From Syntrophales bacterium (GTDB lineage: Bacteria > Desulfobacterota > Syntrophia > Syntrophales > PHBD01): a stretch of DNA of 64,000 nt. Within the stretch, counting starts at the first letter, position 1; each line of letters begins with the position of its first letter. Below, piece by piece: positions 10,722-52,439 of the stretch. A program made the translations under genes and the position numbers. The DNA lies in the NCBI GenBank assembly GCA_963668175.1, contig OY764159.1, forward strand, positions 512,001 to 576,000, read 5' to 3'. The notes under the pieces were generated by a model. It was not told the DNA's origin and did not search any database. It worked only from the letters and a program-made list of their open reading frames with translations.

Positions 10722-10798
10722 GCCCCCGTAGCTCAGTAGGATAGAGCAACGGATTCCTAATCCGTGTGCCGGGCGTTCGAATCGCCCCGGGGGCACCA
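10722..10798 (+). tRNA. tRNA-Arg (anticodon CCT)
   Basis: GCCCCCG/CGGGGGC acceptor stem, D arm, ACGGA-TTCCTAA-TCCGT anticodon arm, GTTCGAATC, encoded CCA. Confidence 0.97.
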
Positions 10799-10846
10799 AT
10801 TATATCAATAAGTTATACGAACACTCCTTACTTCTTCGGCTGCTTC

Positions 10847-10866
10847 TTCTACCCTATTTCTACCCC
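10847..10866 (+). repeat. Putative integrase arm-type site, left
   Basis: TTCTACCCTATTTCTACCCC, identical to 23455-23474; tandem TTCTACCC units. Confidence 0.75.
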
Positions 10867-11057: not shown

Positions 11058-12674
11058 ATGGCAGATGCAGCAATTAAACCATCGGAATCGCTCACGCTAA
11101 TAGAATCAGATAAACCGAAAAAAGCGAAAGTTTTTGAGGAAATAAAGGCTCGTCAAACAGATGAATTGGTAATCGCTTTCTGCGGACCTCTCGGTAGTGG
11201 CGTCAGCACTGTGGCTAAAGAATTTGAAAAGAAAATTCGATCATATACCTATGGAACTCATTATTTAAAAGTTAGCAATTTGATTCGTCAGCATATCGAC
11301 TTGGTTCCTGGACATCCACCTATTCCTACAAGTGATAATCCTGCTGAGGTAATTGAGGCTCTACAAGATGCCGGCAATGCCCTAAGAAGAAAATATGGCA
11401 ATGATATTTTATCGCAGTTCGCGATTAATGAGATTGCTATAAAACGAGAAGACCTTGAAAAATCAGAAAATGCTAAAAAAGTAGAGGGGATAGAAAAAGC
11501 GGCAGAAGTTAAAGAAGAAGACTCAACTGTGAAATCAAAACCGCGACGGCATGTGACAGTCATTGACAGCATAAAACATCCCGAGGAAGTTGGACTGCTC
11601 AAAGCTGTTTATGGTAACATGTTTTATCTATTCGCGATATTATGCCCCGAACAGATTCGAAAACACCGCCTAAACGAACATAAGGACATTCCTGATGGTC
11701 AAGAAGTTGCTTTGATGAAAAGAGATAAGTCCGAATCGGAAGGCTTTGGACAGCAGTTACTAGACACCCTCCACTATGCTGATTTCTATATTCGTAACGC
11801 CGATGTGAATGTCACTTTACTGCAAGACAGCGTTAAGCGTTATATCGATCTAATACTTGGAGACCAATTTATCACGCCTTCCACTGATGAATACGCCATG
11901 TATTGCGCACAGTCGGCAGCGCTGAAATCATCTTGCCTTTCACGGCAGGTTGGTGCTGCGATTATGAGTGAAGACGGGGAATTAATATCAACGGGATGTA
12001 ATGACGTTCCGAAATGTGGTGGCGGATATTATTCCGAAAGAGACAAGGAAAATGATGGCAGATGCATGAAGTTATATGGTCAGCAATGCAAAAACCAAGA
12101 ATTCAAGGATAAAATTATTCAAGCTATCGAAAATGCTCTTTTGCCTTATCTCAGCGATGTCACAAAAAGAACGGAAGCTATGGATAAAATTAAAGAGATC
12201 GAAAGACTGAAAAATATTTTAGAATTCTCAAGGTCTGTCCACGCGGAAATGGACGCTATAGTCAACATCGCCCGTCTTGGCAACGCATCCTTAAGAAACG
12301 CGGCTCTCTATTGTACGACTTTTCCATGTCATCATTGTTCGCGCCATATAGTTGCATCTGGAATAACAAAAGTCTACTACATAGAACCTTACGAAAAAAG
12401 CTTGGCTCGACAATTACATAACGATGCTATTGATTTTGATCCTAAAGTTAATGGCTCCCCTGGAAATAAAGTCATTTTTATCCCCTTTGAGGGGGTCGCC
12501 CCGAGACAGTATATGAATCTTTTCAAAGCAGGTGAAAGAAAGGTAGGTGGTAAAAAAGTCGAACAAGATTTGACTCAATCCAAACCACGGGTTGTACAAC
12601 TTCTCGACACACACGTTGATTATGAGACAAAAGTTGTCAAACATGTTAAATTAATTATACAAAATAAGACTTGA
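11058..12674 (+). CDS. Anti-phage dCTP deaminase (P-loop kinase plus deoxycytidylate deaminase; AvcD/Dcd type)
   Basis: GPLGSGVST P-loop, IDSIKHPEEV, SSCLSRQVGAAI, HAE and PCHHC Zn motifs, FEGVAPRQY. Confidence 0.92.
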   Translation: MADAAIKPSESLTLIESDKPKKAKVFEEIKARQTDELVIAFCGPLGSGVSTVAKEFEKKIRSYTYGTHYLKVSNLIRQHIDLVPGHPPIPTSDNPAEVIEALQDAGNALRRKYGNDILSQFAINEIAIKREDLEKSENAKKVEGIEKAAEVKEEDSTVKSKPRRHVTVIDSIKHPEEVGLLKAVYGNMFYLFAILCPEQIRKHRLNEHKDIPDGQEVALMKRDKSESEGFGQQLLDTLHYADFYIRNADVNVTLLQDSVKRYIDLILGDQFITPSTDEYAMYCAQSAALKSSCLSRQVGAAIMSEDGELISTGCNDVPKCGGGYYSERDKENDGRCMKLYGQQCKNQEFKDKIIQAIENALLPYLSDVTKRTEAMDKIKEIERLKNILEFSRSVHAEMDAIVNIARLGNASLRNAALYCTTFPCHHCSRHIVASGITKVYYIEPYEKSLARQLHNDAIDFDPKVNGSPGNKVIFIPFEGVAPRQYMNLFKAGERKVGGKKVEQDLTQSKPRVVQLLDTHVDYETKVVKHVKLIIQNKT

Positions 12675-12772
12675 ATTTTTTTATCATCTGCTTTATCCAT
12701 TAGTGGATAGTAAATCTTATTATTTAAGGGGGAAGCTCATTTAATTTATTGCCTTGCTGAGAGGAGATAATT

Positions 12773-12988
12773 ATGAGCACTAAAATGAAAAAGAACACTA
12801 TGGCAGAACAGTTATCATTACCTCTCTTAGACATGACTTCAGATCATGTCCAGCTTACCATTACTCAGAATAATGTCGTAATGTTTGGTCACCATCATTC
12901 AAAATGTGAATTTTCGAAGCGCGATCTTCAAAAGCGAGAATTGATAATCAATAAGCTCATTGCGCACGCAGATAAATTAGGATGGTAG
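12773..12988 (+). CDS. 71-aa microprotein with QLSLPL clamp-binding-like motif
   Basis: GAGGAG RBS upstream; co-oriented 98 bp after the deaminase; ends IINKLIAHADKLGW. Confidence 0.7.
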   Translation: MSTKMKKNTMAEQLSLPLLDMTSDHVQLTITQNNVVMFGHHHSKCEFSKRDLQKRELIINKLIAHADKLGW

Positions 12989-13265
12989 ATACTCCCTAAG
13001 TTATTTTAGACCGATTCATCTTGCTACTGAACAACTTGTGGCAACTGTTGGATAGACAGCCTTGATTTCTTAAATTCAGACGTTATGGTCGTTGTTCTGT
13101 TTGACCGATGACTGAATATCTGTGATTGTTTTCTTGTTCTTTAGTCGATAAATTCATTCGCGGTCCAGCCAGCCCTGCCTCTAGATTTTCCCGTCTTGAC
13201 CCGGACCTTCAAGATCGTCCAACTCTTCTCAATAACAAGCACTCGTGTGCCTTTTGGAGTTGCCC

Positions 13266-14114
13266 CTATTTCACCGGACACTGTTCTAACTTATTTTGAT
13301 GTCTCCTATACTCCCTGGGCGACATCATTTTCAATCCCTTGTGCGGATGGTTTTCATTGTAGTCTAAGAACCATCCGGGCAGTTGCTTCATGACCGTTTC
13401 GGCATCAGTCAGGATATTCAGATGAATATAATCCCTCTTGAAGGTCTTGACAAAGGATTCGGCCATTCCGTTCGATTCCGGGCTATAGAACGGGGTCGTG
13501 CAAACCTCAAGCCCCATCATCTGCCCAAAGCTTTTCGTTTCCCTGGCGGTGTACGCAGGACCATTATCGCTCAGCCACTGGATTCTGTGAGGCAGCCGAT
13601 TGATCATACCGAAACGGGCCTCAATGGCTTCCGCCATCAAGTCCCTGACCATGTCGCCGGATACGCCCCCTGTCGTGGCTACATAACTCATGATTTCCCT
13701 GTCGCAACAATCCATGCTGAACGCTACCCGGAGACGGTCCCCATTCCAGCAGGCAATCTCAAACGCATCGGAACACCAACGAAGATCGCTCCGTCTCGTC
13801 GTGACCTTGCCCTCGTGAAGCCTTGCCGGCCTACCCGTATGCCGCTGAAGAAGCAGATTGTGCATCTTCATGAGACGATAAATCCGTTTGGGGTTAACTC
13901 CCGGATGCCCCTGACGTTCCAGAAACCTGTTGATTCTTGCCGTTACTCTCCGATAGCCGTAACTGGGACGATTATCAATAACCTGCCTGATCAGAAGAAG
14001 ATATCTGCCATCGTCGCCTCTCCTGTAATGGCGGCTTCTCGAATCGGCTTCCTTCCCTTGCCTTTCGTACTGCCGGGAACGGGAAACGTCCAGCGTATCG
14101 ACAACCGTCTTCAT
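13266..14114 (-). CDS. IS3-family transposase OrfB (DDE)
   Basis: YGYRRV, WCSD, LSDNG, SPESNGMAESFVKTFK. Confidence 0.95.
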   Translation of the reverse strand: MKTVVDTLDVSRSRQYERQGKEADSRSRHYRRGDDGRYLLLIRQVIDNRPSYGYRRVTARINRFLERQGHPGVNPKRIYRLMKMHNLLLQRHTGRPARLHEGKVTTRRSDLRWCSDAFEIACWNGDRLRVAFSMDCCDREIMSYVATTGGVSGDMVRDLMAEAIEARFGMINRLPHRIQWLSDNGPAYTARETKSFGQMMGLEVCTTPFYSPESNGMAESFVKTFKRDYIHLNILTDAETVMKQLPGWFLDYNENHPHKGLKMMSPREYRRHQNKLEQCPVK

Positions 14115-14488
14115 CGGGAATCGTCCTCCGGCAACAACGGCAACCGCGAGATCAGTTTTTTTTCACGGGCAATCCGGACAGCCTCTCTTAATATCTCCAC
14201 CTCCATTGTCTTTTTGCCCAGAAGACGCTCCAACTCCCGGATCTGCTTCTTCAGTTCTCTGGCTTCCGATGCAGGAACGACGCCTTCATCTGCACCAACC
14301 GCCGACAGAGCCCCTTCTTCGGCAAGCCTGCGCCAGTGGAACAACTGGTTCGGATGGATGTCATACTTCCGGGCTACAGCCGAGATGCTCATTCCCGGCT
14401 GCTCCGCCTCCCGCACCATCGACTTCTTCTCGGCAGCCGACCAGCGACGTCGCCTCTGTACACCGACGATCACTTCTACAGGAACCAT
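14111..14488 (-). CDS. IS3-family OrfA (HTH); A8 frameshift site at 14156-14163
   Basis: RRRRWSAAEK, SISAVARKYDI, LERLLGKKTMEVEIL; GAAAAAAAAC slippery run. Confidence 0.92.
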   Translation of the reverse strand: MVPVEVIVGVQRRRRWSAAEKKSMVREAEQPGMSISAVARKYDIHPNQLFHWRRLAEEGALSAVGADEGVVPASEARELKKQIRELERLLGKKTMEVEILREAVRIAREKKLISRLPLLPEDDSR

Positions 14489-15036
14489 AAACACCTTCTT
14501 TCTGGTTGTAGTAATATCTCTATATCTATTCCTACAACTTATTTCCAGATTCAAAGTGTCCGGTTCAATTGGGGGCTACTTCACTTTTTCGGCGAAGAAA
14601 CACTGTTGGATCAGGACCAGCTCTATCATTCCATCCCTGTCGTTCGCGACGGAAGCCTTAATCCAGTTGTCATAGGCATCTTGAGATACGCATAAGGCGA
14701 TCAGCTTGGGTTTGACAGTGCCTTCGGTTCCGACCATCGGCGCTGCTTGGGCAGTCGAGCAACAAATGAGAAGACATAATGCTGTGATGATTTTGTACAT
14801 GATAAGCTCCTTTCTGTATGGGGTGTTGTTATCCGCCTTCTCTGTTTCAAGGAAGATTCGTCGGCTTTCAGGATTTTGGGGATTGATGTTTGTGCGGGTG
14901 TTGAATTTAGGAACGGGTGTTTTTCGCCCATAATATCCGCGCGAAGGGCTCTGTCGTGCGGCAAGGTCATTTCTGAGGAAGCCACCCGGGGGTGGGTACC
15001 AGTCACTGGGGCAATCGTTCATCCGTTCCGCTTACG

Positions 15037-15723
15037 TTAGTTCCAGAGCCCTTTTATCTGTGATTGAATCGCTTCGTCCGTAACATCAGCGTAAACAAGA
15101 GTTGATTGTATCGACATATGCCGGAGCTGCTTCTGTACTGCCCGGAGGTCCTTCTCTTTGGAATACAGTTCGACGGCGTAGCTATGGCGCAGGGCATGAA
15201 CAGATTTTCCTTTCTCGTATAGATCAAGCTCCCGCAGATATTTTTTGACGATCTGCTGAATAGCTTGGGGCGTCCATGCCCCTCGCTGCCCGACAAAGAG
15301 ATGATCGTCATCGCCTACGGGCTCGCCCTGACTGATTTTCCACGCTTTAAACGCTTTAAAATGACGTTTAAGCGCTTCCGTAATAACGACATGCCCCGAT
15401 ATAGCCCCCTTACCTTTACGGACATGTATTTTGCTGTCGGCGTAGCCGATCTTTAAATCCCCGCAGCGGAGATCGGCTGCTTCGGATACCCGGAGACCCG
15501 CCGATGTCAATAAGTCGATCACCATCCATTCACGGATCGCCGTGACCTTGTTCTTCTGCACGTCAAGCTCTGCCTCTTCCCTTGCTCGTCGTCGGAGCAT
15601 CTTGATCTGCTGTGCGCTAAAGTACTTGATGCCGTCGACGCTTCGCCCTTGTTTGACTCGCGCCCTGCTTCTCGTTGTGACAGCAGGGAATCGAACGATA
15701 CTTGCCGTCTGATCCATGTTCAT
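15037..15723 (-). CDS. Short tyrosine recombinase (catalytic domain only)
   Basis: GLRVSE, KG, HALRH, LRH, VYA catalytic set in 228 aa; no N-terminal SAM/arm domain. Confidence 0.9.
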   Translation of the reverse strand: MNMDQTASIVRFPAVTTRSRARVKQGRSVDGIKYFSAQQIKMLRRRAREEAELDVQKNKVTAIREWMVIDLLTSAGLRVSEAADLRCGDLKIGYADSKIHVRKGKGAISGHVVITEALKRHFKAFKAWKISQGEPVGDDDHLFVGQRGAWTPQAIQQIVKKYLRELDLYEKGKSVHALRHSYAVELYSKEKDLRAVQKQLRHMSIQSTLVYADVTDEAIQSQIKGLWN

Positions 15724-16668: not shown

Positions 16669-17253
16669 TTATCGTAATTTTAACGTCTTAAGTCGTGTTC
16701 TCACAAAAGCAGGATTTACATCGAACATCTCCGCGAAATCCTTATCAGAAAACCCCCTTTCATATCCTTTAACGACTAAATGCCTTGGCATAAGACATGA
16801 TCGTGCGAATTCCCAAGCCTGCCACTCAGGATCTTGGTACGTTTTAATCTGACTTTTCTCCACTCGATAAAGAATGTTCGTTTCCTCTTTCGATACAGCT
16901 CGGAAATAACTGAGAATTGGCACATGATGAATGCAATGAAATGATTCATGAGCAACCGTTGTTCTAAACCGCCGTAAGCCAGGTTTATGAGTTGCGTCGC
17001 TCAACGTTTTATCAACTATACTGATACGATTCACTGAGTCAGTATAACCGATAATCCCTGCCCCCAGATTCGAGAGATCAGTGTAGCCAGTCCTGACCTC
17101 ATGTTGTTCCGGGATGATGCACTCATAGAAGTATTCAATATCAACCGGTTCTTTTCCCTCCAATGCTCGCGGCTGAATCTCTTTGAGGACATCGATCACC
17201 ATTTTTTCTATATCGCGTCTGCGTAATCCCGGAACAACGGTAACCTTTTTCAT
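16669..17253 (-). CDS. ImmA/IrrE-family Zn metallopeptidase
   Basis: RFRTTVAHESFH (HExxH), EWQAWEFARSCLMP. Confidence 0.9.
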   Translation of the reverse strand: MKKVTVVPGLRRRDIEKMVIDVLKEIQPRALEGKEPVDIEYFYECIIPEQHEVRTGYTDLSNLGAGIIGYTDSVNRISIVDKTLSDATHKPGLRRFRTTVAHESFHCIHHVPILSYFRAVSKEETNILYRVEKSQIKTYQDPEWQAWEFARSCLMPRHLVVKGYERGFSDKDFAEMFDVNPAFVRTRLKTLKLR

Positions 17254-17624
17254 TCTCGTTTCCTCGTGAGCGTTTCAAGAGCAGTCGTAAATGCTTTCTT
17301 CAATATCGCGTCATCAGAGGTATCTTCAACGGCGCGGCAAAATCCCCATGCTAAATCAGGATCAGAATTGTAAATCTTATCGATGATTGGCGAATTTTTT
17401 CTCATACGTTCCATCTGAGCCGATTCCTTTATCTTTTCGGAATCCAATCCTAAAACACTTGCCAGATTTTTTAGAATCTCCTCATTTTTCGGTGGTAATC
17501 GTCTTCCTGATTCGATCTCTGACCAAAAGCTTGGCTGCCCTCCTATCTCTTTACTGAGTTGCCGTAATGTCATTCCTTTTTGACGTCTCGCTTTTGCCAT
17601 GAGTTCACCGAAATTAATCTTCAT
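17250..17624 (-). CDS. XRE-family HTH repressor (ImmR-like)
   Basis: FGELMAKARRQKGMTLRQLS..SEIESGRRLP; ATGA coupling to the peptidase gene. Confidence 0.9.
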   Translation of the reverse strand: MKINFGELMAKARRQKGMTLRQLSKEIGGQPSFWSEIESGRRLPPKNEEILKNLASVLGLDSEKIKESAQMERMRKNSPIIDKIYNSDPDLAWGFCRAVEDTSDDAILKKAFTTALETLTRKRE

Positions 17625-23403: not shown

Positions 23404-23454
23404 TAAGTTCTACGTGAGGGGCACGGGTTATATCGCGTAGGGGTATGATTCTTT

Positions 23455-23474
23455 TTCTACCCTATTTCTACCCC
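23455..23474 (+). repeat. Putative integrase arm-type site, right
   Basis: Identical to 10847-10866. Confidence 0.75.
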
Positions 23475-23602
23475 TATACGTCATTTATTGTGATTCCTTG
23501 AGAATAGGATCGTCTATCGTTAACATGTTAAGTTGTTTATATTATAAGATATGTGATGTCAAGCGATTTTCTGTGACGAGGATGATTTGCCGTATTAATC
23601 GT

Positions 23603-23648
23603 ATTCCTAATCCGTGTGCCGGGCGTTCGAATCGCCCCGGGGGCACCA
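23603..23648 (+). repeat. att site: duplicated 3' 46 bp of tRNA-Arg
   Basis: ATTCCTAATCCGTGTGCCGGGCGTTCGAATCGCCCCGGGGGCACCA, identical to 10753-10798. Confidence 0.97.
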
Positions 23649-23978
23649 TTTCAATCATCACATCATGCTCAACCATGATTTTTCTTTTCCCCTTATCCTT
23701 ATTTTTTACAAAAATGCGCAGACGCTGACTTTCAAAAGTCTCTTTGAAAGTCGCTCATAATGTAACTCCTCGCGAAATTGTCGTTGCTCCGGAAACCTTT
23801 CAGACAAGGTGCGTTGCACCCCCATTAACCCCTATGTATCTGAATAGAAAGGCAAACATCTTTTCAATGCGGGACAAGGTTAAGTGAATCGATTTTCCTC
23901 TATTCTTTTTCCCCAAAAAAAAGTATATATATACTATTCATCGTTACATACAGTACTGATCTCGTTTGAGCTCCATAC

Positions 23979-45487: not shown

Positions 45488-47902
<2,415 letters not shown>

Positions 47903-48020
47903 TCACATATTAAAATACGGTAAACCTGGCCTATCCTTCAGCATGAATTCGTGAGATAAACGGCGGGATGATAAACGACATCGGCACCGATTTGAATTTC
48001 AAAAAGGATACAAAGCCGGC

Positions 48021-49139
48021 CTAATACTTAAGCGGCATAATAATACAATAATAGTCATTACTTGATGATGATTTCACCAATGCCGGTTTCTTCGCCCCTC
48101 CAATTTCCAAAACAATCTCTTTCGTATCGATGACCTCGATCGCATCGATCAAGAAATTGACATTATAGGCAATCTCAACCTCCTTGCCTTTGTACTGTAC
48201 ATCAATCTCGTCGTTCGCCTCGCCGACATCGGGATTGGTCGAATTCAGAACCATTCTGTCTTCAGCCAGTTTTACGATCACCCCTTGATAATTATCGCTG
48301 GAAATGACGCTCATTCTTCTTAAGGCATGGAGCACCTTATCCTTTTCAAAAACAATCTCCAGTCCTCTTTCGGACGGAATGACCCGTTTGTAGTCGGGAT
48401 AGTCGGCATCAATGAGACTGACTTTAAGCATGAGATGATCCGCCTTTATAATACACATCCCACCGTGAAGACCTATAGAAACGCTATTTTCCAGACCATC
48501 GATGTTTTTGCGGATCTCATTTAAACCCTTTTTAGGAACGATAACCCCTTTATCCATCCCGAAAAAATCCTGAATATCTACCACCGCGTCGGCCACCGCC
48601 ATGCGATGTCCGTCCGTTGCAACCATTCTCAGACTTTTTTTGTCACCTTCCCGGTTGGCTTCAAAAAAGACTCCCGTCAGATTCTTTCGCATAGGATCAT
48701 TGGATACGGCAAAAGATGTTTTACGGATCAAATCGGATAGTTTGACCGCATCGACACTGAAATACTGAACCCCTTGATCCGAAATAACCTCTGGGAATTC
48801 ATCTGCTTCCAATCCCTGGATTTTATAGATAGCCTTCTGGCAGGTCATGGTAATCATGTTCCGTTCGTTCATGGAAACATGAATATCGTCACCCTGCATT
48901 TCCCTGATCATCTCATGCAGCTTCCTTGAAGATACCGTGATTTTTCCCTCTTTGGCCACATCCGCCTCATATTCGGCTATAAGTCCGACTTCCAAGTCGG
49001 TTGCGCTGACGGTAATCTTACCTGCTTCAGCTTTAATCAGGACATTGTTCAGTATGGGAATGGTGGTCTTCTTTTCAACGATGCCGACCGTTTTTTGAAT
49101 CCCCCATAAAAAAGTGTCTCTTTTGATCTTGAATTCCAT
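48021..49139 (-). CDS. dnaN: DNA polymerase III beta clamp
   Basis: PILNNV, ATDLE, ATDGHR, YPDY, IMP; start placed at MEFK after the RBS. Confidence 0.96.
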   Translation of the reverse strand: MEFKIKRDTFLWGIQKTVGIVEKKTTIPILNNVLIKAEAGKITVSATDLEVGLIAEYEADVAKEGKITVSSRKLHEMIREMQGDDIHVSMNERNMITMTCQKAIYKIQGLEADEFPEVISDQGVQYFSVDAVKLSDLIRKTSFAVSNDPMRKNLTGVFFEANREGDKKSLRMVATDGHRMAVADAVVDIQDFFGMDKGVIVPKKGLNEIRKNIDGLENSVSIGLHGGMCIIKADHLMLKVSLIDADYPDYKRVIPSERGLEIVFEKDKVLHALRRMSVISSDNYQGVIVKLAEDRMVLNSTNPDVGEANDEIDVQYKGKEVEIAYNVNFLIDAIEVIDTKEIVLEIGGAKKPALVKSSSSNDYYCIIMPLKY

Positions 49140-49160
49140 CTTTGTCATCCTTTCATTCAA

Positions 49161-49295
49161 TGATCTTATTTTAAATATTATATAATCAACTAGATTTAGT
49201 AGTAGGGAGTGTTGATAAGTGCATAATTAAAATAACATGATTATAATTAATCACTTGACTACATTCATCCTGTTGATGGTCGATGGATTTTTATG
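49161..49295. other. oriC unwinding region (AT-rich tract, DnaA-trios, DnaA boxes)
   Basis: AT-rich run, then TAGATTTAGTAGTAG, GGAG, TGTTGATAA and an overlapping AGTGCATAA. Confidence 0.8.
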
Positions 49296-50648
49296 TTAAG
49301 ATTTGTTGATCAAGGCATTTTCGATCTCCTGAACGCACTTCTTCATTTTAACATCTTCATCAAGACCCTTCTTGATTTTGTTATAGGCGTAAATCACGGT
49401 GGAGTGGTCCCTGCCGCCGATCTTATCCCCAATATCCGGGTACGAGGTCGATGTCAGTTTCCTGGACAGGTACATGGCGACCTGTCGTGACAAAGAGATA
49501 TTTTTATTCTTCTTTTGTGATTTTATATCCGATATCTTAACCCCGTAGTGGCTGGCCACCGTTTTGATCACTTCATCAATCGTGATATTTTCCTTCTCAA
49601 CGTTTTTAAGAAATTTCTTCAACACTTCCTTCACCAGGTCCATATCGATGGGACGGTTGGTCACGGAAGAGTAAGCGCTGATTCTGACGAGAAAGCCTTC
49701 CAGTTCCCGAATGTTCGATTCCGCGTTCGAGGCAATATAATGGGCAACGTTTAAGGGAAGGATAATATTGTTTTCATGGGCTTTCTTTTCTAGAATAGCG
49801 ACCTTGGTTTCGATTTCCGGGGACTGGATGTCGGCAATTAGCCCCCATTCAAAACGCGATCGCAGCCTGTCCTCAAGATTGGGAATGTCCTTGGGAAATT
49901 TATCGCTGGTAACGACAATTTGCTTACCCGAGTCGTGCAGGGTGTTAAACGTATGAAAAAATTCTTCCTGGGTGCGTTCTTTGCCGGCAATAAACTGGAC
50001 ATCGTCTATCAACAAACAGTCTATCTTCCTGTATTTTTCCCTGAATTTCGGCATCTTGTCGTAACGGATGGCGTTGATCAACTCGTTCATGAACTCCTCT
50101 GCCGATACGTACAGTACGTTCAATTCAGGGAAGGTTGACTGGGTGAGAAGTCCGATGGCATTCAGAAGGTGCGTCTTGCCCAGACCGACATCGCTGTAAA
50201 TGAACAGAGGATTGTAATTCTTGGCCGGTTGTTCCGATACGGCAATCGATGCGGCATGGGCAAACTGGTTGGAAGGGCCTACGACGAAACGGTCAAAACT
50301 ATAATTCGGATTCAGCGACGGATGGGGCTGAACCCGCTGCCCTTTCTTCGGGAGAGACGTATCTTTCTTCTTCGCCGCCGCCTCTATGGAAAAAGGATTC
50401 TTTCCACTCTCCTGATTGATGACGAACGAGATATTCATTTCCACGTCCGTCACTTCGTATAGGCAGTTCTTGATCACCGTAAAGTAGTTGTCGACCACCC
50501 AATCCCGGAAAAACTTGTTGGGAACGGCTAATTGCACATTTCCCTCTTCTTTGGAAACGATCTTGATCGGAGTGATCCACGTTTCAAAGTTCTGCTGACT
50601 GACCTTTTCCTTGATCTTGCTGATCGTTTTTTCCCAAATAATATCCAA
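49296..50648 (-). CDS. dnaA: Chromosomal replication initiator DnaA (TTG start)
   Basis: YNPLFIY, GLGKTHL, IDDVQF, RSRFEWGL, GGRDHSTV. Confidence 0.98.
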   Translation of the reverse strand: MDIIWEKTISKIKEKVSQQNFETWITPIKIVSKEEGNVQLAVPNKFFRDWVVDNYFTVIKNCLYEVTDVEMNISFVINQESGKNPFSIEAAAKKKDTSLPKKGQRVQPHPSLNPNYSFDRFVVGPSNQFAHAASIAVSEQPAKNYNPLFIYSDVGLGKTHLLNAIGLLTQSTFPELNVLYVSAEEFMNELINAIRYDKMPKFREKYRKIDCLLIDDVQFIAGKERTQEEFFHTFNTLHDSGKQIVVTSDKFPKDIPNLEDRLRSRFEWGLIADIQSPEIETKVAILEKKAHENNIILPLNVAHYIASNAESNIRELEGFLVRISAYSSVTNRPIDMDLVKEVLKKFLKNVEKENITIDEVIKTVASHYGVKISDIKSQKKNKNISLSRQVAMYLSRKLTSTSYPDIGDKIGGRDHSTVIYAYNKIKKGLDEDVKMKKCVQEIENALINKS

Positions 50649-50660
50649 GCGTACCCTTCC

Positions 50661-50692
50661 TTATAAACAACCTTATAAACAGCTGTTGATAA
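50661..50692. promoter_or_regulatory. Three DnaA-box variants upstream of dnaA
   Basis: TTATAAACA (50661), TTATAAACA (50673), TGTTGATAA (50684). Confidence 0.7.
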
Positions 50693-50707
50693 AAATCGTG
50701 CAGTCTG

Positions 50708-51559
50708 TCAGACCTTTAACAGCGATGTGATTAAGCGGTTCAATTCGTCCAAGGACGAAAATTTGATGACGATGTTGCCACGCTTTGCGTTCTTGCTGAT
50801 TCTCACGGATGTCATAAGTTTTGACGAAAGTCTCTTTTCCAAATCCGTCATGACAACGTCGTTCTTTGACTTCTTGCTAACAGGGGCTGGCAGTTTGATT
50901 TTTTTTGCAAGTTCTTCCGCCTGACGGACATTCAGATTTTGTGCAACTATTTTATGCAGAAGAAGAACCTGCTCTTTATTCGCACCTAGAGCGAGCAATG
51001 CCCGGGCATGGCCCGCCGATATTTTCTTGTCGACCAGGGCGGTTTTGGCCTCCGGCGGCAATTTCAGCAAACGAAGCGTATTTGTAACGGTTGTCCGGTC
51101 CTTTCCGACCTTGGCGGCTATCTCTTCCTGGGCAAATCCGAATTTATCGATTAATGTTTGATAGGCTTCCCCTTCCTCAATGGGATTGAGATCCTGCCGC
51201 TGTATATTTTCGATGAGGGACCACTCGGCGATATCTAAATCCTTGGCCTCCCGGATAATCACCGGAACGTCCCTCAACCCTGCCTCCTGCGCTGCACGCC
51301 ATCGCCTTTCACCCGTGATGATTTCATAACCGCCGGCTTCCGCTCTCCTCACCACAATAGGCTGGATAATGCCGCTTTTCCTGATGGAATCCGCCAGGCT
51401 TTTCAGCTCCTCGGCGTCGAAATCCTTCCGGGGCTGGAATCTGTTGGGCGACAACTCTTCGACACCGCAGGTGACGTAAGTCTTACCCTCCGGCGCGCCG
51501 CTCAGGAGGTCCGGGAAAATGGCCCCCAGGCCCTTGCCAAGAGATTGTTTAGGCGGCAT
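50708..51559 (-). CDS. parB: Chromosome partition protein ParB
   Basis: LGKGLGA, QPRKDF, GERRWRA, ENIQRQDL. Confidence 0.96.
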   Translation of the reverse strand: MPPKQSLGKGLGAIFPDLLSGAPEGKTYVTCGVEELSPNRFQPRKDFDAEELKSLADSIRKSGIIQPIVVRRAEAGGYEIITGERRWRAAQEAGLRDVPVIIREAKDLDIAEWSLIENIQRQDLNPIEEGEAYQTLIDKFGFAQEEIAAKVGKDRTTVTNTLRLLKLPPEAKTALVDKKISAGHARALLALGANKEQVLLLHKIVAQNLNVRQAEELAKKIKLPAPVSKKSKNDVVMTDLEKRLSSKLMTSVRISKNAKRGNIVIKFSSLDELNRLITSLLKV

Positions 51560-51561
51560 CC

Positions 51562-52335
51562 TTATAGACCTCCGTTATGGCTGATGATTTCCTGGGCCAG
51601 TTCCAGGTAGGAGACGGCGCCCCGGGATTTGATATCGTAGAGAATAATGGGAAGGCCATGGCTGGGGCTTTCCGATAGCCTGACGTTCCTGGGAATGACG
51701 GTTTGAAACACTTTCTTGTTGAAATGTTTGCGAACTTCCTCGCTTACCTGATGGCAAAGGAGGTTCCTCGTATCAAACATGGTGAGTAAAATCCCCCCCA
51801 GTGTCAGGGATGGGTTGAGTTTGGACTGAATAAGCCTGATCGTATTCAAAAGATGCCCGAGACCCTCCAGGGCAAAATATTCACACTGCATGGGGACAAT
51901 GACGTAATCGGCCGCCACCAGGGCGTTTAGTGTAAGAAACCCCAGGGACGGCGGGCAGTCGATGATGATATAATCATAGACAATCTCGAGGTCCTGAAGG
52001 AGGAAACGAAGTCTTTTTTCACGCTCTTCCAGGTTGACGAATTCGATCTCGATGCCGATCAGATTCTGATCCGCCGGCACCACGTCGAGATGAGGTATCT
52101 GCGTCTTCATAATGGCGTCGGCCAGAGGCATGCGGTCCGTGAAACTGAGATAAAGGTTCCTATCCTTGATGGCCGTGCGATCAATGCCGATACCGCTGCT
52201 GGCGTTGCCCTGCGCATCGCAGTCGATCAGGAGGGTCTTCTTCTCGGCTGCCGCCAGAGAGGCCGACAGATTAATGGCCGTCGTCGTTTTGCCGACCCCG
52301 CCTTTCTGGTTTGCTATGCAGAAGATTTTTCTCAT
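51562..52335 (-). CDS. parA: Chromosome partition ATPase ParA/Soj
   Basis: NQKGGVGKTT, DCPPSLG, IPRNVRLSESPSHG. Confidence 0.96.
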   Translation of the reverse strand: MRKIFCIANQKGGVGKTTTAINLSASLAAAEKKTLLIDCDAQGNASSGIGIDRTAIKDRNLYLSFTDRMPLADAIMKTQIPHLDVVPADQNLIGIEIEFVNLEEREKRLRFLLQDLEIVYDYIIIDCPPSLGFLTLNALVAADYVIVPMQCEYFALEGLGHLLNTIRLIQSKLNPSLTLGGILLTMFDTRNLLCHQVSEEVRKHFNKKVFQTVIPRNVRLSESPSHGLPIILYDIKSRGAVSYLELAQEIISHNGGL

Positions 52336-52439
52336 GATTTCCTTAAGATGCCCTCTATTGATACCTACGATGCGAGTGGGCAAAACTAACACAAAATCAT
52401 TTTTTTTTGAAGGGTTATTTTTTAGAACAACAGTCTGAT

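Follow-up and report, generated by a model that had tools for sequence, protein, structure and literature searches.

A conserved microprotein with a putative sliding-clamp motif beside an anti-phage dCTP deaminase gene in a Syntrophales bacterium

Anti-phage deoxycytidine triphosphate (dCTP) deaminases are activated by phage infection and deplete dCTP (Tal et al., 10.1101/2021.04.26.441389; here and below, statements on published work refer to the matching text of the cited sources). This defence has so far been described in two ways, as the work of one gene alone or as a toxin paired with an RNA antitoxin; in the published account, it is triggered when the RNA is lost upon transcription shut-off. 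In the stretch of DNA analysed here, 64,000 nucleotides (nt) of a Syntrophales bacterium (contig OY764159.1, positions 512,001 to 576,000; hereafter the window), the gene for such a deaminase is followed on the same strand by a small open reading frame (ORF), whose 71-amino-acid (aa) product, the microprotein, carries the hexapeptide QLSLPL, a motif resembling those of ligands of the beta sliding clamp (DnaN). The locus raises the question of whether the small gene encodes a partner of the deaminase, acts as an RNA or is a chance frame, and what a clamp motif would do beside a nucleotide-depleting enzyme.

As judged from sequence comparison, the microprotein belongs to a previously undescribed family that is widespread among the small proteins encoded next to such deaminases, and it is very probably the cognate partner of the enzyme. 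The reading somewhat favoured here takes the locus as a two-gene nucleotide-depletion module on a tRNA-Arg island, with the microprotein as a clamp-coupled regulator of the deaminase. The enzyme and the two-gene layout are already known; as far as the literature was searched, the novelty lies in the protein family and its clamp motif. Full-text searches retrieved no paper linking dCTP-deaminase defence to the clamp or describing a partner protein, in agreement with an earlier note on this DNA, made from the sequence alone, which had known of no clamp-linked defence of this kind.

Pairing of the microprotein with the deaminase

The deaminase gene (11058..12674, forward strand) is intact and encodes 538 aa. 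The product scored 469.8 bits on the NCBIfam model NF041025 'anti-phage dCTP deaminase' (cut-off 400) and matched the PADLOC dCTPase model (1.6e-165), phrog_9198 and the Pfam domain dCMP_cyt_deam_1 (PF00383, residues 275-442), with a weak AAA_18 match at residues 39-207. Residues G43, P44, G46 and S47, the HAE triad (H395-A396-E397) and the PCxxC element (P423-C424...C427) are invariant across the deaminase alignment (A4), and a sequence search of the PDB with the deaminase returned matches to dCMP-deaminase domains only. The product is thus classified by homology as an AvcD/DcdV-type anti-phage dCTP deaminase with an N-terminal P-loop kinase-like and a C-terminal dCMP-deaminase domain.

The gene is followed by an AT-rich spacer of 98 nt (12675..12772), in which a Shine-Dalgarno-like AGAGGAG (12760-12766) lies 6 nt 5' of the ATG of the co-oriented microprotein gene (12773..12988, forward strand), a gene recognised by its family profile (E = 5e-18) and codon usage. 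The product ends in ...KLGW and holds QLSLPL at residues 13-18 (12809..12826). The intact enzyme gene, the gap, the ribosome binding site, the 71-aa ORF, the position of the motif and the terminal Trp had all been reported in the earlier note and were reproduced to the base. No terminator-like site was found between the two genes in a promoter/terminator scan, with nothing above shuffles, and an alignment of six related spacers revealed no conserved element.

Orphan status of the ORF had been suggested by a word-indexed search among proteins of near length, which gave only a self-match, and was overturned by synteny and by a profile search run without a word index. At all three of the closest deaminase loci (Desulfobacteria-type metagenome-assembled genomes (MAGs) of a species-genome collection, 49-55% identity), a co-oriented ORF of 60-88 aa lies directly downstream of the deaminase gene and aligns with the microprotein. 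A word-indexed protein search with an alignment (A1) recovered five proteins; a family profile built from the window sequence and the three MAG ORFs, run without a word index on 1.84 billion representatives, gave 42 matches at E <= 1e-3. These comprise 41 full-length proteins of 60-89 aa and one 1338-aa repeat protein, which was rejected as spurious.

In the alignment of 43 family sequences (A2), the Leu at position -3 from the end (L69 of the microprotein) is invariant and the Ala at -6 (A66) nearly so. Upstream of these lie a central N-V-I-x-F segment, represented in the microprotein by NNVVMF (residues 33-38, 12869..12886), and an N-terminal Q-L-x-L-P-F block. The C-terminal Trp is present in 42 of the 43 members, as against 16 of 826 ORFs of 45-110 aa that served as controls and came from the same loci. 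The monomer model leaves residues 1-48 disordered (predicted local distance difference test, pLDDT, 50-69) and folds residues 49-69 into an amphipathic helix (pLDDT 96-98), which together with the terminal Gly-Trp occupies 12917..12985. The C-terminal 21 residues align with a Klebsiella plasmid ORF (hhalign probability 81%), and the helix with its Trp is, in the aligned sequences, the most conserved module of the family. Pfam, NCBIfam and PHROG hold no family matching the ORF and revealed no homology to toxin families. Neither Pfam and NCBIfam nor the model, which is a single helix with a disordered N-terminus, indicated a DNA-binding domain of the kinds known from type II antitoxins (helix-turn-helix (HTH), ribbon-helix-helix, AbrB).

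To place the pair in a wider context, 98 deaminase loci were compared: 80 from metagenomes (the best 80 of at least 492 confirmed matches), five from a phylum sample of 401 genomes, three from the MAGs, nine from plasmid and phage records picked by hand from 54, and the window. The deaminase was matched in six of the 401 genomes, and in two of 41 related genomes, namely the window's own and one with a partial match of 32% identity, a distant homolog that was excluded from the set. Among the 8198 six-frame ORFs of the 98 loci, the iterated family profile gave 30 matches at E <= 1e-3. All but one of these were scored as adjacent to and co-oriented with the deaminase gene, and the thirtieth (L094) is also a downstream neighbour, mis-binned through overlap; the adjacent zones hold 1090 of the 8198 ORFs. 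Weaker matches (E up to 1) were adjacent in 21 of 25 cases.

Collapsing the loci at 95% identity left 92 clusters, in which 41 downstream and 27 upstream candidates were counted, always co-oriented with the enzyme. Eighteen clusters had no candidate although both flanks measured at least 300 nt, and in six the flanks were too short to judge. Without support from the profile, 21 of the 68 candidates were recognised by the motif or the terminal Trp alone; at control rates of 3.4% (motif) and 1.9% (Trp) per ORF, a few of these are expected by chance. The earlier note had proposed a two-gene variant with a protein partner; the pairing and its conservation beside deaminase homologs are borne out by the three closest loci and by the census, while the rarity implied by 'variant' is not, as related small ORFs flank most of the deaminase loci examined. 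The ORF is almost certainly a real gene.

Evidence for the link from the side of the small protein is thinner. In the 401-genome sample the family profile found this genome only, besides a marginal match (E = 0.007) inside a 474-aa frame, and free-standing copies away from deaminases were thus not seen there. Searches of plasmids and phages with tblastn gave chance-level matches only (best E = 0.5 and 3), those of the genomes of 40 relatives gave weak matches inside long frames only, and a subclade alignment (A3) found no match in viral contigs. Fused or longer forms were absent at E <= 0.01, which is weak evidence; the ESM Atlas offered no usable match, and a sequence search of the PDB gave nothing (best E = 0.29).

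A deaminase tree covering 91 of the 92 loci groups the partner types into clades. One large clade has downstream ORFs with the motif and without the terminal Trp; the window belongs to another, in which the downstream ORFs have a terminal Trp and, for the most part, the motif; in a small clade, upstream ORFs have both features; a further one, which includes the plasmid copies of Klebsiella, E. coli, Vibrio and Photobacterium, has upstream ORFs ending in Trp without the motif; and one consists of deaminases without a partner. Many relatives of the upstream type begin directly at the NVIxF-like segment.

Some individual loci illustrate this diversity. At L012, of the clade with the motif and no Trp, a 70-aa ORF starts 20 nt past the deaminase stop and carries QMSFQF at residues 8-13; C-termini in this clade are diverse, for example His-Ile-Gly, His-Leu-Tyr or His-Phe-Ile. 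Two ColE1-type plasmids of 4.6 kb from Klebsiella pneumoniae and E. coli consist mostly of the deaminase gene and an upstream gene for a 60-aa 'hypothetical protein' (L098, 124-306; L105, 422-604), which ends in Leu-Lys-Trp and has the C-terminal helix of the family without a canonical clamp motif. In the Burkholderia phage phiE094, the deaminase gp47 is followed by a 73-aa hypothetical protein, gp46 (L100, 2783-3004), with QLSLNF near the N-terminus and a Trp-Tyr-Phe end; the presence of this pair on a temperate phage indicates that clamp-motif partners travel on phages too. The deaminase frame of one MAG locus (L008, 3001-4611) lies in three pieces beside an intact downstream microprotein ORF, the near-identical L018 having an intact enzyme; the break may stem from faulty assembly or from a toxin gene in decay.

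Protein or RNA as the active partner

The best-placed alternative is that the small-ORF region acts as an AvcI-like (type III) RNA antitoxin, the peptide and its clamp motif being secondary or dispensable for restraining the deaminase. It draws on the Vibrio cholerae system, where an ORF of 174 nt 5' of the enzyme gene coincides with DifV (later AvcI), an element that still inhibits when its start codon is turned into a stop codon or its ribosome binding site is removed, and where the small ORFs found 5' of three other dcdV homologs are 'hypothetical proteins' without mutual similarity (10.1101/2021.03.31.437871). Shut-off of transcription leads to loss of the AvcI RNA and to activation of AvcD (PMC10511110). 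The restraint of AvcD by an upstream small RNA, cited in the earlier note as established, agrees with both sources.

In the family described here, on the other hand, conservation is found at the amino-acid level. At the conserved positions all six Leu codons, both Gln codons, all four Ala codons and all three stop codons occur, and selection therefore acts on the protein. The ratio of nonsynonymous to synonymous substitution rates (dN/dS) is 0.26-0.43 in the three close pairs; for the Klebsiella-type ORFs, which lie upstream, it is about 0.3. Divergence of the nucleotides has left the terminal Trp and the short motif near the N-terminus in place. Shine-Dalgarno-like cores precede 29 of the 68 small ORFs, compared with 66 of 373 controls. 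RNA folding showed no excess stability over shuffled sequences (z = -0.57 for the window and +0.59 for the Klebsiella plasmid ORF region), and a search of the window with Rfam matched only the tRNA, with no match at the microprotein gene. The gene lies downstream of the enzyme here, whereas AvcI lies upstream. An antitoxin acting purely as RNA is considered unlikely on these grounds, albeit the least unlikely of the alternatives; a dual-function RNA is possible.

The clamp motif and its predicted target

Canonical clamp motifs have the form Q-phi-x-[L/M]-[F/L] or Q-phi-x-[L/M]-x-[F/L], QLxLF and QLxLxF being the strongest, and that of Hda sits in a disordered N-terminus (PMC11139829). QLSLPL fits the second form. 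The string itself has no occurrence in the matching text of PMC11139829, and its identity with the hexapeptide of E. coli Hda is an attribution of the earlier note. A motif of the reviewed type (Q-aliphatic-x-[LM]-(x)-[FL]) lies within the first 45 residues of 32 of the 43 family members, as against 15 of the 826 control ORFs; a looser pattern gave 40 of 43 against 28 of 826. In 108 unique small proteins, 51 hexamers and eight pentamers (QLxLF) were counted, with a median start at residue 14, and the hexamers have Leu at position 2 in 49 and Phe at position 6 in 43 cases.

Motif carriers make up 25 of the 41 downstream candidates and four of the 27 upstream candidates, and some downstream forms scored as lacking the motif (L022, L023, L037) retain a Gln-less L-x-L-F or P-L-F. 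Many upstream forms, including those of the Klebsiella and E. coli plasmids, are without the motif. It is an N-terminal addition, present in most downstream forms, to a more widely distributed C-terminal helix-Trp module.

The predicted docking target is encoded in the same window by dnaN (48021..49139, reverse strand; PF02768, with clamp structures in the PDB matched at E-values as low as 2.1e-59). This DnaN (alignment of 30 sequences) was co-folded with microprotein residues 1-35 (alignment of 43) in three runs, together with three controls. The interaction score ipSAE (interaction prediction score from aligned errors) was 0.74 in each run, the best control reaching 0.01; a score of 0.74 is attained by 116 of 157 solved complexes and two of 215 mismatched pairs, counts that apply only roughly here since custom alignments were used. 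The contacts agreed to at least 94%, and the pLDDT of the partner was at least 64. Contacts run from residues 6, 8-9 and 11-19 of the microprotein to DnaN residues 175, 177-180, 248-250, 252-253, 286, 301, 303, 324, 326, 350, 352, 366 and 368-372, the main segments being T175-M180, P248-V253, N326 and M368-Y372. Judged by offset and by their sequence context (ATDGHR, PDYxRV and the C-terminal MPLK), these appear to correspond to the subsite I and II residues of the E. coli clamp (PMC11139829). Residues 11-19 are thus predicted to occupy the canonical cleft between domains II and III, in a co-fold of the kind that the earlier note had suggested as a check, and the motif probably does bind DnaN.

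Alternatively, the receptor of the motif may not be DnaN; candidates are the deaminase itself, a phage protein and a protease adaptor, and the resemblance to clamp ligands would then be convergent. Short hydrophobic motifs are promiscuous, and since many clamp-peptide complexes have been solved, the co-fold may have passed through likeness to, or memory of, these. The variation within the family is nevertheless confined to the two published classes of clamp motif, including the switch from hexamer to pentamer in the eight unique QLxLF proteins; the motif shares with that of Hda a position in a disordered N-terminus (PMC11139829), and it is rare in control ORFs. A different receptor is accordingly held to be improbable.

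A slightly less probable alternative accepts the clamp as the target and makes the microprotein a second effector, which would compete with polymerases for DnaN and halt replication alongside the depletion of dCTP. The clamp-binding toxin SocB of Caulobacter offers a precedent for such an effect, and the motif of the microprotein is of the high-affinity class (QLxLxF/L) and is predicted to dock in the cleft that polymerases use. Against a clamp blocker, the upstream forms without a clamp motif retain the most conserved part of the family, the C-terminal helix-Trp, which points to some other function; constitutive co-transcription of a blocker would be costly; and no homology to toxin families was found in Pfam, NCBIfam, PADLOC or PHROG.

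Weakest is the proposal that the ORF is a chance open frame, which the self-match of the word-indexed search and the lack of a Pfam, NCBIfam or PHROG family might suggest and which synteny, the family profile, dN/dS, the enrichment of Shine-Dalgarno cores and codon usage together refute.

The deaminases of the partner-less clade were also inspected, and no canonical terminal clamp motif was found in them. Five (L078, L084, L059, L089 and L015) have tails recalling clamp motifs, either Gln-Gly/Ala-Arg-Leu-Leu at the extreme C-terminus or Arg-Leu-Pro/Ser-Phe or Leu-Pro-Leu-Phe close to it; they are too few and degenerate to call and, if real, would point independently to a connection with the clamp.

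Model, genomic setting and related systems

In the favoured reading of the microprotein as a clamp-coupled regulator, the two ends of the protein would face different partners. The C-terminal helix-Trp is common to forms with and without the motif and to either gene order, and is thus taken as the deaminase-facing module, which would dock on the enzyme and hold it in check; the disordered N-terminus, with its high-affinity-type QLSLPL, would dock in the hydrophobic cleft of the host DnaN. In this way the state of the replication clamps could be relayed to the deaminase, or to the stability of the microprotein and its availability as an inhibitor. During infection, host expression may be shut off, or clamps may be captured, displaced or increased in number by the phage; either event would free the deaminase, upon which dCTP would be converted and phage DNA synthesis starved. 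From conserved synteny, we infer that the microprotein binds the deaminase, and the chances that it regulates the enzyme by direct binding are put at about even; whether it acts as inhibitor or as tether, and what the trigger would be, is conjectural too. The earlier note had offered three roles for the partner, a labile antitoxin, a tether of the enzyme to the replisome and a sensor of clamp hijacking, and these are likewise conjectural.

A more specific version can be put forward only tentatively. It envisages an immune switch in which the deaminase is held off while the microprotein sits in the clamp cleft, or is stabilised or turned over through it, and is released when clamp occupancy is changed by phage replication or by clamp-binding proteins of the phage; the antitoxin genes of the AvcID systems, described as small RNAs, would then be, or descend from, protein genes of this family. 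If so, the AvcID system would not be purely type III.

Several points weigh against the favoured reading. The metagenome loci, being the best matches, and the hand-picked plasmid and phage records are non-random samples; 18 of the 92 deaminase loci have no candidate partner, and 21 of the 68 candidates lack profile support. The partner-less loci, together with the mostly motif-less upstream forms, indicate that a clamp link is not essential to the enzyme family. DifV works untranslated, and RNA alone can therefore serve as the antitoxin in at least one system. The upstream ORF of enterotoxigenic E. coli H10407, tested as a cognate inhibitor in the DifV study (10.1101/2021.03.31.437871), is not a detectable member of the family (hhalign probability 4%). 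The co-fold, finally, shows that the motif resembles clamp ligands; it supports binding and does not demonstrate it in the cell.

The pair is carried as cargo at the left end of an integrative island of about 12.9 kb in the tRNA-Arg(CCT) gene (10722..10798, forward strand; ARAGORN, and Rfam tRNA at 68.6 bits), which served as the integration site. The island is bounded by a direct repeat of 58 nt with 93% identity, the copy at 10750-10807 comprising the 3' part of the tRNA gene and the other lying at 23600-23657; a second repeat pair (10843-10866 and 23451-23474) lies alongside. Besides the deaminase pair, the island contains an IS3-family insertion sequence about 275 nt 3' of the microprotein gene (13263..14574, reverse strand; inverted repeats 13263-13282 and 14555-14574), with ORFs matching HTH_Tnp_1 (14111..14554) and rve (13266..14114). 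A tyrosine recombinase (15037..15723, reverse strand; Phage_integrase, PF00589, 1.1e-21) and an HTH/IrrE-like pair (16669-17624) complete the contents noted. About 35 kb from the island, dnaN lies in a gyrB-dnaN-dnaA-parB-parA cluster (45488-52392), which is probably the replication origin region; its presence in the same window as the deaminase is apparently a coincidence.

With a conserved partner protein that carries a sliding-clamp motif, dCTP-deaminase defence would respond to a second input that had not been foreseen, namely the state of the replication machinery. As far as the literature was searched, it would also tie defence by nucleotide depletion to the beta clamp for the first time, and it would bring a widespread microprotein family to the clients of the clamp. 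The small ORFs near avcD homologs hitherto described as without similarity, including those of common Klebsiella and E. coli plasmids, merit re-examination.

Among known systems, the nearest is AvcID (DcdV-DifV) of V. cholerae, which shares with the window an enzyme of the family with P-loop kinase-like and dCMP-deaminase domains and the layout of a mobile, toxin-antitoxin-like unit of two co-oriented genes with a partner gene of about 55-75 codons (10.1101/2021.03.31.437871, PMC10511110). AvcI is described as an untranslated small RNA encoded 5' of the enzyme gene, with homologs reported as dissimilar, whereas the partner in the window lies 3', is under selection at the protein level, belongs to a recognisable family and carries a clamp motif. 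On the deaminase tree, the copies with upstream small ORFs on enterobacterial plasmids fall into a single clade, and the C-terminal helix-Trp of the microprotein recurs in the ORF from Klebsiella. The same enzyme was handled by Tal et al. as one gene cloned 'with native promoters', and the matching text of that study mentions neither a partner protein nor a clamp link (10.1101/2021.04.26.441389).

Hda and other clamp ligands (PMC11139829) resemble the microprotein in having an N- or C-terminal motif for the same cleft, which in the case of the microprotein is a prediction of the co-fold. Unlike Hda, the microprotein has no AAA+ or polymerase domain, shows no homology to it and consists, apart from the motif region, of a single helix. 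Its genomic partner is a nucleotide deaminase rather than a factor of replication or repair. SocAB of Caulobacter is a module of the toxin-antitoxin type with a clamp-binding component, in which the clamp binder SocB acts as toxin and a protease adaptor as antitoxin; it includes no nucleotide enzyme and has no sequence relation to the pair described here. To our knowledge, no clamp-dependent degradation has been described in bacteria.

The closest analogue in logic is Spd1 of fission yeast, a small, intrinsically disordered inhibitor that controls ribonucleotide reductase, binds PCNA and is removed by CRL4-Cdt2 in S phase (PMC10939359, PMC5448002). Spd1 is eukaryotic and unrelated in sequence, and its target raises the levels of deoxynucleotides, whereas the deaminase destroys one of them. 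The clamp-coupled switch outlined above, if true, would be the counterpart in bacteria of the way in which Spd1 and PCNA control ribonucleotide reductase.

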